This document shows, one piece after another, positions 50,385-62,324 of a stretch of 64,000 bases of DNA (its first letter is position 1; every line of letters starts with the position of its first letter). The DNA lies in the NCBI GenBank assembly GCA_977017645.1, contig OZ360220.1, forward strand, positions 94,054,001 through 94,118,000, in the 5' to 3' direction. The DNA comes from Torpedo marmorata. Taxonomy: Eukaryota. The notes beneath the pieces were generated by a model. It did not search any database and had not been told where the DNA came from. It saw only the letters and a list, made by a program, of their open reading frames with translations. Made by a program: the position numbers and the translations under genes.

Positions 50385-50932
50385 GAGTACCTTCACTCTG
50401 TCTGCTGCATTAACAGGGACCTCCCAGAGGCCAACCATTTCAATTCCACACCCCATTCCCAAACCAACATGTCTGTCCATGGACTCTTGCACTGCCAAAG
50501 TGAGGCCACCTGCAAATCGGAGGAACAACACCTAATATTCCGTTTGGGCTCTCTCCAACCAGGGAATTAACATCAACTTATCCAGTTTCCATTAGCCCCC
50601 TCCCCTGTCTTTCTCGTTTCCCTATCCCTTTGTCTCCTTTTCTCCGGCTCCCACCCTCTTCACTTTCCATTCAGAGAGCTACCCTCTCCCCCTATCACCT
50701 CAACTTTTTTCTCTTCTGCCCTCCCACCCATATCTACCTATGAATTCTTGCCTGTTGGGCTGTACACCTCCCCCTGCCCCTTCCTCCCTCCTCTCCTCCC
50801 CACCCCCACCTTTTTATTCAGACACTTTCCTGCGTTTCGCTCATACCTTGCCAAAGGGCTCAGGCCCGAAATGTTGGTTCCTGTGGACACTGCGTGACCT
50901 GCTGAGTTTCTCCAGCACGTTTGTGTATTGTA
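50385..50932 (+). mobile_element. Penelope-like 3' fragment
   Basis: GIY-YIG C-terminus (EEQHLIFRLG) and terminal repeat with decayed hammerhead core. Confidence 0.75.
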
Positions 50933-53587: not shown

Positions 53588-53750
53588 TGTACGCTTCTCT
53601 GCCTTGCTATTTAAACATCGATCTGAATGCCTCTTAAATGTGGTGATTGCATCTGACTCCACCACCTCCTCTGTGATCTTTCCAGAACAAGCAAGTTAAA
53701 AATGGTGAGAGAATGAATAATTTTGACACATCACTAGTGGAAATATTCAC

Positions 53751-53985
53751 TGATGCACCATCAATAACTCCGAAAGACTAGAAGTTAGGCAAGAACTGAT
53801 CGGCTTTTATTCACATTGGAATGGATGCACACTCCTGGTGGTCGTCTGAGCTGGACTGGGGAAGGGAGCCGTGGCACAATAGCCTTTATTCAGGGGTCTG
53901 TGGGAGGAGCCACAGATACAGTCAGTAAGGGGCGTGTCCAGACGACCATAAACATATATACATGTATTTACAGTGGTTTACCACA
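53751..53985 (-). repeat. Gypsy 3' LTR
   Basis: Direct repeat of 58669-58901; about 10 substitutions and 2 indels by manual count. Confidence 0.92.
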
Positions 53986-56900
53986 TTCACCCCTCCTTTC
54001 TAAAAAGAGTTCTGCGGGGTGAAGTGAATTAAAGTTCTCACAGATTCAGTCTTTCAGGTGGTCTTGTCTGCCGCTGCGTCTGTCGTAGTACCGGCTGCGG
54101 CGCAGCTGTTGCCTCCAGTCCTGAGTGGACCACCTGTGTGTTGTCGGCTCTGTCTTGGTGGATGCATGGCGGCGAAGTATCTGGCAAGTCCTCCCCAGGA
54201 GCTAGGGTCACTTGCCATGGTAAGGGTGCATCGTGGGTGGCGGTGGGTGGGGAGGGGGCAGAGCGGTCGTTTGTGGTGTCAGGGACTCCTGAGGGTGCCA
54301 GGTCCCGAACGTAGACCGTGTCCTCCCGCCCATCAGGATACGTCATATAGGCGTATTGGGGGTTGGCGTGGAGGAGGTGGACCCTTCCGACCAGTGGGTC
54401 CTGCTTATGGCTCCTCGCGTGCCTCCGGAGTAGGACCGGCTCTGGGGGTATCAGCTAGGATGGCAGTGTGGTCCCTGAAGCGGACTTCCTAGGAAAGGAA
54501 AACATTCTCTCATGTGGAGTGGCATTGATGGCTGTGCACAAGAGTGATCTGATGGAATGGAGTGCCTCGGGGAGTACCTCTTGCCAGCGGGAGACTGGAA
54601 GACCTCTTGACCTTAGGGCTAGGAGGGTGGCCTTCCAAATGGTAGTGTTCTCCCTCTCCACCTGCCCGTTCCCTCGGGGATTATAACTGGTGGTCCTACT
54701 CGTGGCGATGCCGCTGGCCAGCAGGTACTGACGCAGCTCAATACTCATAAAAGAGGACCCCCAGTCGCTATGGATCTAGCAGGGGTACCCGAAGAGGGTG
54801 AAAAGGTTGCGTGGGACCTTGATGACTATGGCTGTGGTCATGTCCGGGCAGGGAATGGCGAAGGGGAAACGTGAGTACTCATCAATAATGTTGAGGAAGT
54901 ACACATTGCGGTCAGAGGAGGGGAGGGGTCCCTTGAAGTCAACGCTCAGGCGTTCAAAGGGGCGGGTGGCTTTTATCAGGTGCGCTCTGTCTGGTCGGTA
55001 GAAGTGCGGTTTGCACTCTGCACAGATCTGGCAGTTCCTGGTCATGGTCCTGACCTCCTCGATGGAGTAAGGTAGGTTGTAGGCTTTTATAAAATGGAAG
55101 AATCTGGTGACCCCGGGATGGCAGAGGTCGCCGTGGAGGGCTTGTAGGCGGTATATTTGTGCGCTGGCACATGTTCCACGGGAAAGGGCATCTGGGGGCT
55201 CATTGAATTTACCAGGCCGGTACAAGATATCGTAATTGTAAGTGGAAAGTTCAATTCTCCTCCTCAGAATCTTGTCGTTCTTAATTTTACCTCGCTGTTG
55301 GATATTAAACATAAACGCAACTGAACGTTGGTCAGTTAGCAAGGTAAGCCGTTTTCCGGTGAGGTAGTGCCTCCAGTGCCGCACCGCCTCAACAATGGCT
55401 TGGGCCTCTTTCTCGACAGAGGAGTGTCAGATTTCTGGGCCTTGGAGGGTGCGGGAAAAGAAAGCTACAGGTCTGCCCTCTTGGTTGAGGGTGGCGGCCA
55501 GGGCAAAATCGAACGCATCGCTCTCCACCTGGAACGGGTTGGATTCGTCCACAGCATGCATCGCGGCCTTGGCGATGTCCGCTTTGATGCGGCTGAAGGC
55601 CACACGGGCCTCTGACATCAGGGGAAAAGAGGTGGATTTGATGAGGGGGCGGGCCTTGTCCGCATAATAGGGGACCCACTGGGCAACATAGGAAAAGAAG
55701 CCCAGGCACCTTTTCAGGGCTTTGTGGCTGTGGGGATGTTGGAGTTCCAACAGGGGGCGCATGCGGTCTGGGTCTGGGCCAATCACTCCATCCTGTATGA
55801 CGCAGCCAAGGATGGCCAGGCATGTTGTGCCAAAGACGCTTTTATCCCTATTATAAGTAAGTTTTCGGAGCCTGGCGGTCTGAAGGAATTTTTGGAGGTT
55901 GGCTTCATGATCCTGTAGGTCATGGCCGCAAATGGTGATATTATTCAGATACGGGAATGTGGCCTGCAGCCTGTACTGGTCGACCATGTGGTCCATCTCC
56001 CGCTGGAAGACCGATACCCCGTTGGTGACACCAAAGACCAAAGGAGACCCTCAGGAAATGATAGAGGTGGCCAGCTGCCTCAAAGGCAGGGTATTGGCAG
56101 TCCGCCGGTCAGATGGGGAGTTGGTGGTATGCCGACTTTAAGTCGATGGTGGAGAATACTTGGTATTGGGCGATCTGGTTCACCATGTCGGCTATGCGGG
56201 GGAGGGGGTACGCATCCAGCTGCGTATATCTATTGATGGTCTGACTATAATCGATGACCATCCTGTTCGTTTCCCCATTTTTTACGACTACCACTTGGGC
56301 TCTCCAGGGGCTGGTGCTGGCTTCGATGATCCCTTCCTTCAATAGCCGTTGCACTTCCGACCTGATAAAGGCACTGTATCGCCTACTTTTGGAGGCCACG
56401 GGTTTGCATTCGGGGGTACGATTAGCGAACAACGGTGGGGGGGGGGCGATCCGGAGGGTAGAAAGGTCGCAGGTCGCGCGCGGTGGGCGGTCGGCGGGTT
56501 GCTGGCTGGACGCAATGGGAGGGGGACCCGGGGATCTTCTGTGGGTGACTTGCGATGGGCGGTTCACAAACTGCGGATTACAGACGGTAAGAGGTGGATG
56601 GGGCCCATCGTACTCCAACGTCACGCTTTTAAGGTGACATTGGAAGTCTAGCCCCAGTTGCACGTCCGCGCAGAGCTGTGTCATGACTAATAACTTAAAG
56701 TTTTTATATTCTGTGCCCAGTACAGTCAGGGTCACTATACAGTACCCGCGGATCTCTGCTGTGTGAAACTTGGAAGCCATGGAGATTTTGTGGCTTTACC
56801 GGCGTTACCGCGAGTCGGTAACACTGTACTGTGTCGGGGTGAATAAAGCTCTCCGTGCTCCCACTGTCGTAAAGGCAGCTCGTCCTGTGGCCATCTACAT

Positions 56901-57806
56901 CAATGTCCATCATCGATCTGGCCAGTTGATGGGGGCTCCCTTGATCGAGAGTGATGGAGGCCAGTACAGAGTCACTGTCGGATTCTGTAGGGGTGATGCG
57001 ATGCTCGGGTGTTCAGTCCCAAGATGGCGGCCCCCATGGTTCGCACGCGGCGCTGCCGGGTCAGGAAGTTGGCGTCGTCAAAGATGGTGGCCCCCATGGT
57101 TCACACACGACGCTGCAGGGTGGGGAAGATGGCATCATCCAAGATGGCGGCTCCCATGGTTCGCACGCAGCGCTGCTGGGTTGGGAAGATGGCGTCATCC
57201 AAGATGGCGGCGGCGTCCAAGATGGCGGCGCCCTCTGCTCGCACGCGGTGCTGCTGGGTCTAGCGGGCGGTTGGGACTTATAGACTTTCGCGTAGTGCCC
57301 CTTCTTCCTGCAGTTAGCGCAGACCGCGTCTTTCACCGGGCAGCGTTTCCGTGGGTGCTTATTCGATCCGCAGAAGTAGCACTTCGGCTGGTTGCGGGTC
57401 ATAGCAGCCGTGGTTGAGTCGGTAACGGAACGTGGCGGTGTTCCACAGGCTTGCGACCCTCCCGCGTCCCAAGATGGCGATGCCCGCTGCAACCACGGTG
57501 TGGCCGAGTACGCGTCCATGCTTTGGAGGGCCACTTCTAATGTGTGCGCTAGGTGCACAGGCTTCTGCAAGTCGAGCTCACCTTGCTCCAAAAGTTTCTG
57601 CCTTATGTAGTTCGATCGGATACCGGCAACATAGGCATCCCTTATGAGGTTCTCTGTGTACGTCGCGGCCGTAACGGCCGCGCAGTTGCAGGCCCGTCCG
57701 AGGGTTCGCAGGGCTAGTAAGTATTCATCACTCAATTCCCCAGGTCGCTGTTTTCGGGTAGCTAGGAGATGTCTTGCTTAGACTTGGTTTACCTTCTTCA
57801 GGAGTA

Positions 57807-58407
57807 AAACACGAAAATCTGTAGACACCGTTGTTGAAGTAAAAAAACACAAATGCTGGAGAAACTCAGCAGGTCAAACAGTGTCTTTTATGTAGCAAAG
57901 GTAGAAATACATAACCGACATTTCGGGCTTGAGCCCTTCATCAAAGTATGAGAAAATGCCGGCAGGCGTCCGAACAAAAGAGTGAGGGTGGGGGAAGGGG
58001 GGGGTGGAAAAGGCAGGAGATGATAGGTGGAGAAAGGAGGGAGGGGACAGCAGCAAAGAGGGGGAGGAGGAATGGCTGGGTGGGTGGAAAAAAACAGGAA
58101 GGACAGGTGAGGGGGGAGGGGAAGGAAACGACAAGCAGGTTTAGTGGAAAGCAGAAAAGTCAATGTTAATGCCATCTGGCTGGAGAGTGCCCAGACGGAA
58201 AATGAGATGTTTTTCCTCCAATTTGCGGGTAGTCTGGGTGGGATAGTACATAAGGCCATGGACAGACATGTGAGTGTGGGAGTGTGACCCGGAATTGAAA
58301 TGGTTGGCTACTGGGAGGTCGCTGTTGTTGCGGTCGGAGAGGAGGTGCTCAGCAAAGCGATGTCCCAATCTACGACCGGTCTCTCCGATGTAGAGAAAGC
58401 CACAAAG
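57807..58407 (-). mobile_element. Penelope-like 3' fragment inserted in Gypsy gag
   Basis: GIY-YIG motif LYIGETGRRL...; candidate TSD GGAGTA (57801-57806 / 58408-58413). Confidence 0.88.
57909..57950 (-). ncRNA. Minimal hammerhead-ribozyme-like motif in PLE terminal repeat
   Basis: Minus strand CATACT-TTGATGA-A-GGGC-TCAA-GCCC-GAAAT-GTC-GGTTATG: core boxes plus perfect stem II. Confidence 0.65.
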
Positions 58408-58668
58408 GGAGTATTGGCCTTTTAGCGTCTCCATTGCCTCCTGGTAAGATTCAGCGTCCCTGATCATCAAGTATACCCGGGGCCCGACCCAGGAATGTTG
58501 TAGTTTGTCGTCTTCCGATTGGACGACAGTAGCAGAGGCCCTCAAGAATGCCTCGAAACAACGCAGCCAGTGTTCGAAACAGTTGGATGCCTCAGGTGAT
58601 TGAGGGTCTAGCTCCAACTTTTCTGGTTTCAGGTACTGATCCATTATCAAAAACAATGTGAATAAAAT

Positions 58669-58901
58669 TGATGCACCATCAATAACTCCAAAGACTAGAA
58701 GTTAGACAGGAACTGATAGGCTTTTATTCACATTGGAATGGATGCACACTCCTGGTGGTCGTCTGAGCTGGAATGGGGAGGGAGCTGTGGCACAATAACC
58801 TTTATTCAGGGGTTTGTGGGAGGAGCCACAGGTACAGCCAGTAAGGGGCGTGTCCAGACGACCATAAACATATATACATGTATTTACAGTGGTTCACCAC
58901 A
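58669..58901 (-). repeat. Gypsy 5' LTR
   Basis: Direct repeat of 53751-53985. Confidence 0.92.
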
Positions 58902-59261
58902 TTCACCTCACTGAATTGACAGTGAATGTTCTGTGCAAATCTACTGACCAGAGTAATTCTGGCCCTCATGACCAAATCCTTGTCCAGGTGTGATTTACAG
59001 TACTGGTGAAAGAAAAAGGTGGAGATCAACTTCAGAGCAGGGTGGGAACAAGATCGCAACTTCATGCTGCTCAGCCTTTTAGTTAATCTTGTTCGAATGT
59101 GGCATGATATTTTTTAAACCTGGCGTCATCAAGCAATGGTAGACATAATTGTAACTAGATTTTAGATGCAGGAGTAAGACAGGATAGGCTGTTCAATCCT
59201 TCCCATCTGTTGCACAGGAATGCTGATTACTGATTACAACAGCAACCTGCCCAAAGAAGTT

Positions 59262-61961: not shown

Positions 61962-62165
61962 GATTCACTCGGCCCAGCTTGAAAAGCGTTAAGAATGAGA
62001 GATCCTCTTATTTTCGGAGGAAGGAGAAGAGGTTTCGATTCTTCATCAGGCGCATGGTGAAATCGCAGACCTTTTATTGGATTGTCCTGTGTGTGGTGGG
62101 ACTTAACACTTTCTGCGTTGCAATTGTCCACTATGACCAGCCTATGTGGCTCACGGAGGCACTAT
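61962..62165 (+). CDS. CACNA1B: Internal coding exon (204 bp, phase 1-1) of voltage-gated N-type calcium channel alpha-1B (Cav2.2): end of I-II linker and IIS1
   Basis: Polypyrimidine tract plus CAG acceptor (AG at 61960-61961) and GTAAGT donor at 62166. Translation (G)[67 protein letters not shown](Y); [19 protein letters not shown] and LCVV fit 1B better than 1A or 1E as I recall those proteins. Confidence 0.9.
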
Positions 62166-62324
62166 GTAAGTTGATGCAAAGCCGTCCAAAGCTTATTTTC
62201 ATGTATATTTTCATTTTAGTTAAAAAGATAGATTTTCAAAATTCCTGATGAAAATTGTTATTATCAATGAAGCTATTATCTCCGTGCTTAAAAGGGATGC
62301 CGAGAACAGAAATGCATGCAGAGG

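Follow-up and report, generated by a model that had tools for sequence, protein, structure and literature searches.

Mature tRNA 3′ ends pair with primer-binding sites (PBSs) that begin with TGG, and elements of the Mag lineage have a tRNA-type primer site together with a gag that contains two CCHC knuckles. Tf1 and Tf2 of Schizosaccharomyces pombe, Tj1 and the Tf1/sushi group of chromoviruses have no tRNA site; their PBS instead complements the element's own 5′ LTR (parts of PMC7175516, PMC4600332 and bioRxiv 10.1101/2022.12.06.519325). In Tf1, for which this class of mechanism has been proven in yeast, bases 1–11 form the duplex with the PBS, and RNase H cleaves the RNA between base 11 and base 12 (sections of PMC7175516), and a ‘pretzel’ of three duplexes is required (bioRxiv 10.1101/2022.12.06.519325, in part). 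Self-priming has also been predicted from sequence for the TAR lineage of plant Ty1/copia elements (Houba, Osr-1; an excerpt of PMC6317226). Self-priming outside the chromoviruses is therefore not new in general, and the sequence-only reading of the present locus, which had offered it as the novelty, was anticipated on this point.

Here we analyse a Gypsy element in a 64,000-nucleotide stretch of Torpedo marmorata contig OZ360220.1 (the window). It resembles Tf1/sushi elements in that it has no tRNA site, its PBS complements its own 5′ LTR and the 3′ end of the matching segment faces U5. With the TAR lineage it shares predicted self-priming outside the chromoviruses, and it differs from that lineage in superfamily and in hosts, the window element having the gypsy domain order.

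Structure of the element and its family

The window element lies on the minus strand at 53751–58901 and belongs to a Gypsy LTR retrotransposon family of high copy number, of which it is a decayed member. It has TG...CA LTRs, a target duplication, a polypurine tract and gag followed by protease, RT, RNase H and integrase, as expected for Ty3/Gypsy, and Pfam profiles matched the pol remnant in the gypsy domain order. Its LTRs are about 95% alike and its pol lies in several pieces, signs of decay on which the sequence-only reading did not comment. The features, in the direction of transcription, are as follows.

58902–58906 (5′ side) and 53746–53750 (3′ side): target-site duplication, 5-bp GTGAA, on both flanks
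58669–58901, minus strand: 5′ LTR, TG...CA, 233 nt
58799–58807, minus strand: TATA-like motif GAATAAAGG, a putative promoter, with an AATAAA hexamer inside
58770–58776, minus strand: initiator-like CCATTCC, with the start predicted at 58774 from motif spacing
58722–58735, minus strand: predicted self-primer segment CAATGTGAATAAAA, with AATAAA at 58723–58728 within it
58675–58721, minus strand: inner U5 stem predicted by folding, GCC (58719–58721) with GGT (58675–58677), the LTR end bulged out
58668, minus strand: spacer base A between LTR end and PBS
58654–58667, minus strand: predicted primer-binding site TTTTATTCACATTG, the complement of CAATGTGAATAAAA
58412–58644, minus strand: 5′ part of gag, ATG at 58644
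57802–58411, minus strand: later insertion in gag, ~610 nt, seen as a blastn gap and missing in copy L038
57061–57801, minus strand: 3′ part of gag, with two CCHC knuckles
54038–57012, minus strand: pol remnant (protease, RT, RNase H, integrase) with stops and frameshifts and without a chromodomain
53986–54000, minus strand: polypurine tract GAAAGGAGGGGTGAA
53751–53985, minus strand: 3′ LTR, in which the segment recurs at 53805–53818

Each of the two gag knuckles reads CX2CX4HX4C, in line with the double zinc knuckle of the sequence-only reading, and the 24 nt which that reading counted between the LTR and the gag ATG at 58644 are indeed there.

The exact junction of LTR end and PBS occurs 2020 times in this genome (control, 0). 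Among 20 copies taken whole, both LTRs were present in 12, with 213–228 of 233 bases alike and mostly 5-bp duplications. In young sister families a single frame can reach ~1320 residues, and the two LTRs can be as much as 100% alike. The nearest named homologous proteins are from Hypanus, Mobula and Scyliorhinus (74–82% identity); more distant named homologues, known from proteins alone, are from Oculina, Xenia, Nematostella, Trichinella and Periplaneta.

The primer-binding site complements the LTR of the same element

One base past the LTR end, the PBS (58667–58654) is the exact 14-nt complement of LTR positions 58735–58722, as it is of the same segment in the 3′ LTR (53818–53805). This match, its presence in the 3′ LTR and its overlap with AATAAA had all been claimed from the sequence, and every coordinate checked. 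When the LTR was shuffled 5000 times with dinucleotide composition preserved, and matches starting 0–4 nt past the LTR end were scored, a 12-nt match arose once, 11-nt matches three times and matches of ≥13 nt never. Chance complementarity is ruled out by these shuffles together with the cross-family comparisons given below. Folding of the LTR–PBS region placed the duplex in both the minimum-energy and the centroid structures (z −2.6), with one in 200 shuffles as stable.

Covariation between families

The full 14-nt match is kept in 27 of 29 other top-scoring copies, the exceptions being one copy altered in the PBS and another altered in the LTR; because these copies were chosen by likeness to a query that contained the site, they form a biased sample and lend weak support. 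We therefore give more attention to the covariation that the sequence-only reading had proposed as a check. The scan covered 108 related loci (80 metagenome, eight MAG and 20 from this genome), 43 of which had a candidate repeat pair around pol. A self match of 11–17 nt between the LTR-end region and the LTR interior was present in 34 of the 43, comprising all 19 sister elements of this genome and 15 of 24 loci from other sources. The remaining nine had none in this first scan. A looser scan, which had no null of its own, found a fitting inverted repeat in L052, L131, L132 and L137, three of which are short contigs with overlapping ends, and no inverted repeat in L075, L082, L097, L111 and L113.

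The matching loci bore out the proposal: each has its own match, and their PBS strings are of 26 different sequences (21 once five fully cross-matching pairs are merged). In comparisons across families 633 of 650 reached ≤9 nt, and no more than 8 nt of the window PBS matched any of the 25 other LTRs. When 11 families of this genome were aligned, both sides were seen to change in nine of the 14 pairs, and 96.8% of cells pair; none of 500 shuffles reached the covariation score, and slid controls gave 35–46% pairing. These pair counts overstate the number of independent events, because the families are related. The register is also kept: the predicted 3′ arm at the PBS starts 0–4 nt from the LTR end across loci, and the 5′ copy of the segment lies 38–79 nt from the PBS in matching loci.

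Control elements gave short matches. The longest self match was 5–9 nt in the 13 loci of a TGG-type family of this genome, 0–7 nt in 12 outgroup loci, several of which have doubtful repeat pairs, and 0–7 nt in L138, L140 and L141. We conclude that complementarity between primer site and LTR is a real, lineage-wide feature.

Some observations on these loci are recorded here in their own right. The TGG-type control family (L163–L175) has LTRs of ~860–900 nt and a primer site of the TGGGGGCTCG type, and its integrase precedes RT. At their apparent LTR ends, the outgroup Gypsy elements L189 and L184 lack both a TGG site and a self match. Loci L131–L142 are animal-type Gypsy elements inside bacterial MAG contigs; G001 and G002 each have >100 RNase H matches, which points to eukaryotic contamination.

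Comparison with host tRNAs

The site does not begin with TGG, as had been noted from the sequence, and this excludes the 3′ end of a mature tRNA as primer. The wider search against host tRNAs which that reading had called for is less telling. From 40 of 61 listed places we obtained 38 host sequences, representing only 12 anticodons; against these the best Watson–Crick match of the window PBS was 4 nt, or 9 nt with G–U pairs, and the ten sister PBSs reached 4–6 nt by Watson–Crick pairing. As a test for tRNA fragments this is weak, because even the TGG-type controls found no primer in so small a set.

It could be argued that the PBS is read by an internal tRNA fragment or some other host RNA, and that the LTR match is a by-product. 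Half-tRNA priming does exist in copia lineages (according to a portion of PMC6317226), and the 9-nt match with G–U pairs came from a comparison spanning 12 anticodons. A fixed host primer, however, would hold the PBS constant, and at least 11 different PBSs occur in this one genome, each tracking its own LTR. Together with the shortness of the Watson–Crick matches, this makes a host primer very improbable. In our view the coexistence of many different PBSs in one genome, each following its own LTR, is a better argument than the tRNA comparison itself.

A model for priming from the element's own RNA

From these sequence comparisons, we consider it probable that the family primes reverse transcription with a 14-nt stretch of its own RNA and not with a tRNA. 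Self-priming, which the sequence-only reading had put forward, is thus well, if indirectly, supported by the covariation, the register beside the LTR end, the missing TGG and the negative controls. On the model of Tf1, the 5′ region of the RNA would bend back and bring the segment into a duplex with the PBS; cleavage immediately 3′ of this duplex (after ...AUAAAA, near 58722) would expose a 3′-OH, and the candidate enzyme, again on that model, is RNase H. Extending this end, RT would copy U5 and what remains of R before transferring to the 3′ terminus of the RNA. Such a route requires that polyadenylation fall downstream of the cut site.

The spacing of motifs suggests that transcription starts near 58774, ~39 nt upstream of the segment, and we lean towards this position. 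All 11 families examined in this genome have the TATA-like GAATAAAGG, which is absent from the 10 families of other sources, and an initiator-like motif follows it by 33–34 nt in eight of the 11, the distance being 33 nt in the window copy. The spacing between GAATAAAGG and the segment varies from 67 to 95 nt in this genome's families. These motifs make the start near 58735 that had been predicted from the sequence doubtful. If transcription does begin near 58774, the primer would be a capped RNA of ~53 nt, paired by its last 14 nt only. The clade would then differ from Tf1, in which the self-primer is the 5′ end of the transcript, in having a start that probably lies upstream of the primer. 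GAATAAAGG could instead be a poly(A) signal; were the 3′ LTR to use its AATAAA in this way, transcripts would stop short of the segment, and self-priming by this route would fail.

The duplex of the clade differs from that of Tf1 in further respects. It is 11–17 nt long and usually covers a poly(A) hexamer, and no third ‘pretzel’ duplex above shuffles was found in any of 21 families. The inner U5 stem has four pairs that are 100% paired in the 11 families of this genome, with no compensatory change, and was not seen in most non-fish relatives. AATAAA or ATTAAA is covered by the duplex in 15 of the 21 families, including all 11 of this genome. The other six duplexes are without a canonical hexamer, which is absent in L051, L055, L065 and L091 and lies outside the duplex in L053 and L054; masking of the poly(A) signal is therefore not the whole purpose of the duplex and may be a side effect. 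In most families it is likely that hiding the hexamer of the 5′ LTR is a side benefit.

Two other readings take the hexamer as their starting point. In one, the duplex acts purely as RNA structure, masking the poly(A) signal of the 5′ LTR and so guarding against early termination, priming being left to something else. The 15 covered hexamers speak for it, but it leaves the six others unaccounted for; moreover, the 3′ arm sits 0–4 nt from the LTR end, at the place that a primer has to occupy, and no alternative primer site can be seen, so that we regard this reading as quite improbable. In the other, the element would self-prime from its opposite end: the 3′ R copy of the segment (53805–53818), trimmed or cut after the hexamer, would prime the same or a second packaged RNA. 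An identical segment is indeed present in both LTR copies, and in the same 15 families the duplex ends at the hexamer, close to where the RNA 3′ end is formed. Against this, the 5′ copy is close enough to the PBS (38–79 nt) to fold with it locally, as the z of −2.6 indicates, the tail and further bases would presumably have to be removed, and use of this end as primer would be expected to consume the acceptor for strand transfer. Priming from the 3′ copy is accordingly unlikely in our estimation, and we retain priming from the 5′ copy as the preferred model.

Placement of the clade

The clade differs from Tf1/sushi elements in having no chromodomain, in its Mag-like gag and in lying apart from chromodomain-bearing anchors in the trees. 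Pfam searches for Chromo and SH3_Tf2-1 found neither in the tail of the window integrase, which agrees with the absence of a visible chromodomain noted earlier, nor in P0012, P0019, P0030, P0046, P0061, P0073 and P0122; the positive controls P0162, P0169 and P0173 were matched. PF00385 was listed for none of 120 protein homologues, many of which are partial. In this genome PF00385 gave 15 matches, and a search with PF24626 for a sushi-like anchor led to a family with a TGG-type site. The gag profile matched K02A2.6-like proteins over its own length (best E 3e-35) and plant chromovirus gags weakly (about 1e-5), and this provides independent support, apart from the pol trees, for the placement.

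Tree anchors were picked by features: chromodomain-bearing or plant proteins, three of which were checked, and outgroup elements that we took to be Gmr1-like from domain order, CsRn1-like from the primer site and Mag-like from the double knuckle. The Mag-like anchors are K02A2.6-like records and L186, and not named Mag elements. The rows were thinned from 53 by dropping the longest branches; L184 moved between labels, P0166 (labelled frog) clustered with a protein of Arabidopsis and was left out rather than taken as sushi, and two loci found with PF17921 in this genome did not enter the trees. A search of 401 genomes for further outgroups yielded three genomes. No relatives were found in the viral contigs searched, an atlas search returned only unnamed Gypsy clusters, and a gag search among longer proteins gave three matches, none to a named element.

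In every tree the clade came out as a single, fully supported group with a long stem. For RT-RH with integrase (28 rows, 619 columns) the clade was sister to the Mag-like pair L186 and P0134 (support 95/98); the tests rejected a union with the Chaetomium-group anchors (p=0.00016) and, marginally, one with the chromovirus anchors as a whole (p=0.041, or 0.037 without L184). A mixture model of 20 rows of the same data gave the same topology, with a support of 83 for the Mag-like sister. RT-RH alone (29 rows) rejected none of the four placements in AU tests (Chaetomium-group p=0.094, all chromoviruses 0.18, Mag-like 0.39, CsRn1-like 0.18) and did not recover the sister link to the Mag-like pair, the RT-RH mixture tree being a quick version. 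All trees are unrooted, long stems can attract, and the groups were fixed after the first tree.

Domain content and the tree of RT-RH with integrase support a position outside the chromoviruses, in a tree that includes neither Tf1 nor sushi themselves, and the clade is probably a separate animal lineage. The suggestion of a separate lineage in the sequence-only reading thus holds as far as the chromodomain and this combined tree go, and gains nothing from RT-RH alone; the RT phylogeny which it had called for was built with feature-chosen anchors in place of named Tf1, sushi and Mag sequences.

The clade shares with the Mag lineage (A, B and C clades) a K02A2.6-like gag with a double CCHC knuckle, and in the tree of RT-RH with integrase it was sister to the two Mag-like anchors. 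It has no tRNA-type site, whereas in the anchor L186 the site is of TGG type and the self match reaches 6 nt; it further differs from these anchors, which stand in for named Mag sequences, in its long stem and in an RT motif that is often YxDN. Cigr-1 of Ciona has LTRs of ~245 bp and one ORF of ~1200 codons, much as in the self-matching clade. It is listed under Mag in PMC6238403 (supplement 1, in part), and Cigr-1, MolGy3 and MolGy11 are unassigned neighbours of Mag with which the Mag-like gag of our clade is common ground. Possibly, then, the clade is one already catalogued, Cigr-1 being a candidate by size and gag type and not by sequence.

CsRn1 and Saci-2/lennie are likewise non-chromovirus Gypsy elements of animals, and are described as having a CHCC or CCCH gag, tRNA-Trp or tRNA-Leu sites and 4-bp target duplications (portions of PMC2582038, PMC4558846 and PMC12471100); Saci2 elements encode a fused Gag-Pol (PMC12471100, in part). 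The clade has CCHC twice and 5-bp duplications. Membership of CsRn1 or Saci-2/lennie is rejected on gag motif, primer site and duplication length, that is, on published features and not on sequence. A peptide-motif search of part of the supplementary files of two clade-naming papers gave no match, and a literature search, in which subscription papers and Repbase were thinly covered, returned no description of self-priming for a non-chromovirus animal Gypsy clade.

The reverse transcriptase motif

Among 120 homologues the RT motif was YxDN in 85 and YxDD in 21, and was not parsed in 14. Of 14 long open frames obtained outside this genome, 13 have YxDN, as do 16 of 17 parsed copies of the window family; all 20 sister elements of this genome have YxDD. 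The decayed RT of the window copy reads YLNN at about 55950. CpG decay was ruled out as the origin of YxDN, since long open frames include every one of the four codon combinations. A literature search for YLDN found nothing.

Interpretation

The element appears to work like Tf1 but fell outside Tf1/sushi in those tests of membership that could be run. It represents a known mechanism in a new form, possibly in a clade that already has a name. Our fuller reading is tentative: an animal-wide, Mag-related lineage may have evolved self-priming independently of Tf1/sushi, with a long capped primer cut inside R at the poly(A) hexamer, without the pretzel and often with a YxDN RT, a mode of priming undescribed for the lineage.

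If so, tRNA-free priming would have arisen more than once within Gypsy elements, and would be used by a large animal clade beyond the chromoviruses, with named protein homologues in rays, sharks, cnidarians, a nematode and a cockroach. Such elements would presumably escape control exerted at the primer site by tRNA supply or by tRNA fragments. Annotation that requires a tRNA PBS would miss them, and they may explain calls of ‘variable PBS’. The clade also offers a natural test of internal-primer cutting and of whether an RT works with YxDN.

Other features of the locus

The GTGAA target duplication is identical to the final five bases of the polypurine tract (58902–58906 and 53986–53990), and GTGAA precedes the 5′ LTR in L003, L005 and L023 too (four of 30, counting the window copy). 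Nesting, recombination or target bias are possible explanations for this repeated flank. The end of gag (57019–57289) contains degenerate 60-nt tandem repeats in three to four units. Within the gag insertion (57802–58411) an open frame, GETGRRLGHRFAEH..., fuses in frame to the start of gag to give a frame of 186 residues; we take it to resemble the GIY-YIG endonuclease of Penelope-type elements, and a Pfam search of this frame returned no match. Relatives of the insertion lie elsewhere in the window, near 50450, 53070 and 60530. Finally, 61979–62167 on the plus strand is an exon most like that of the N-type calcium channel alpha-1B subunit (E 4e-25), and the Gypsy copy, on the opposite strand, probably sits within an intron of that gene.
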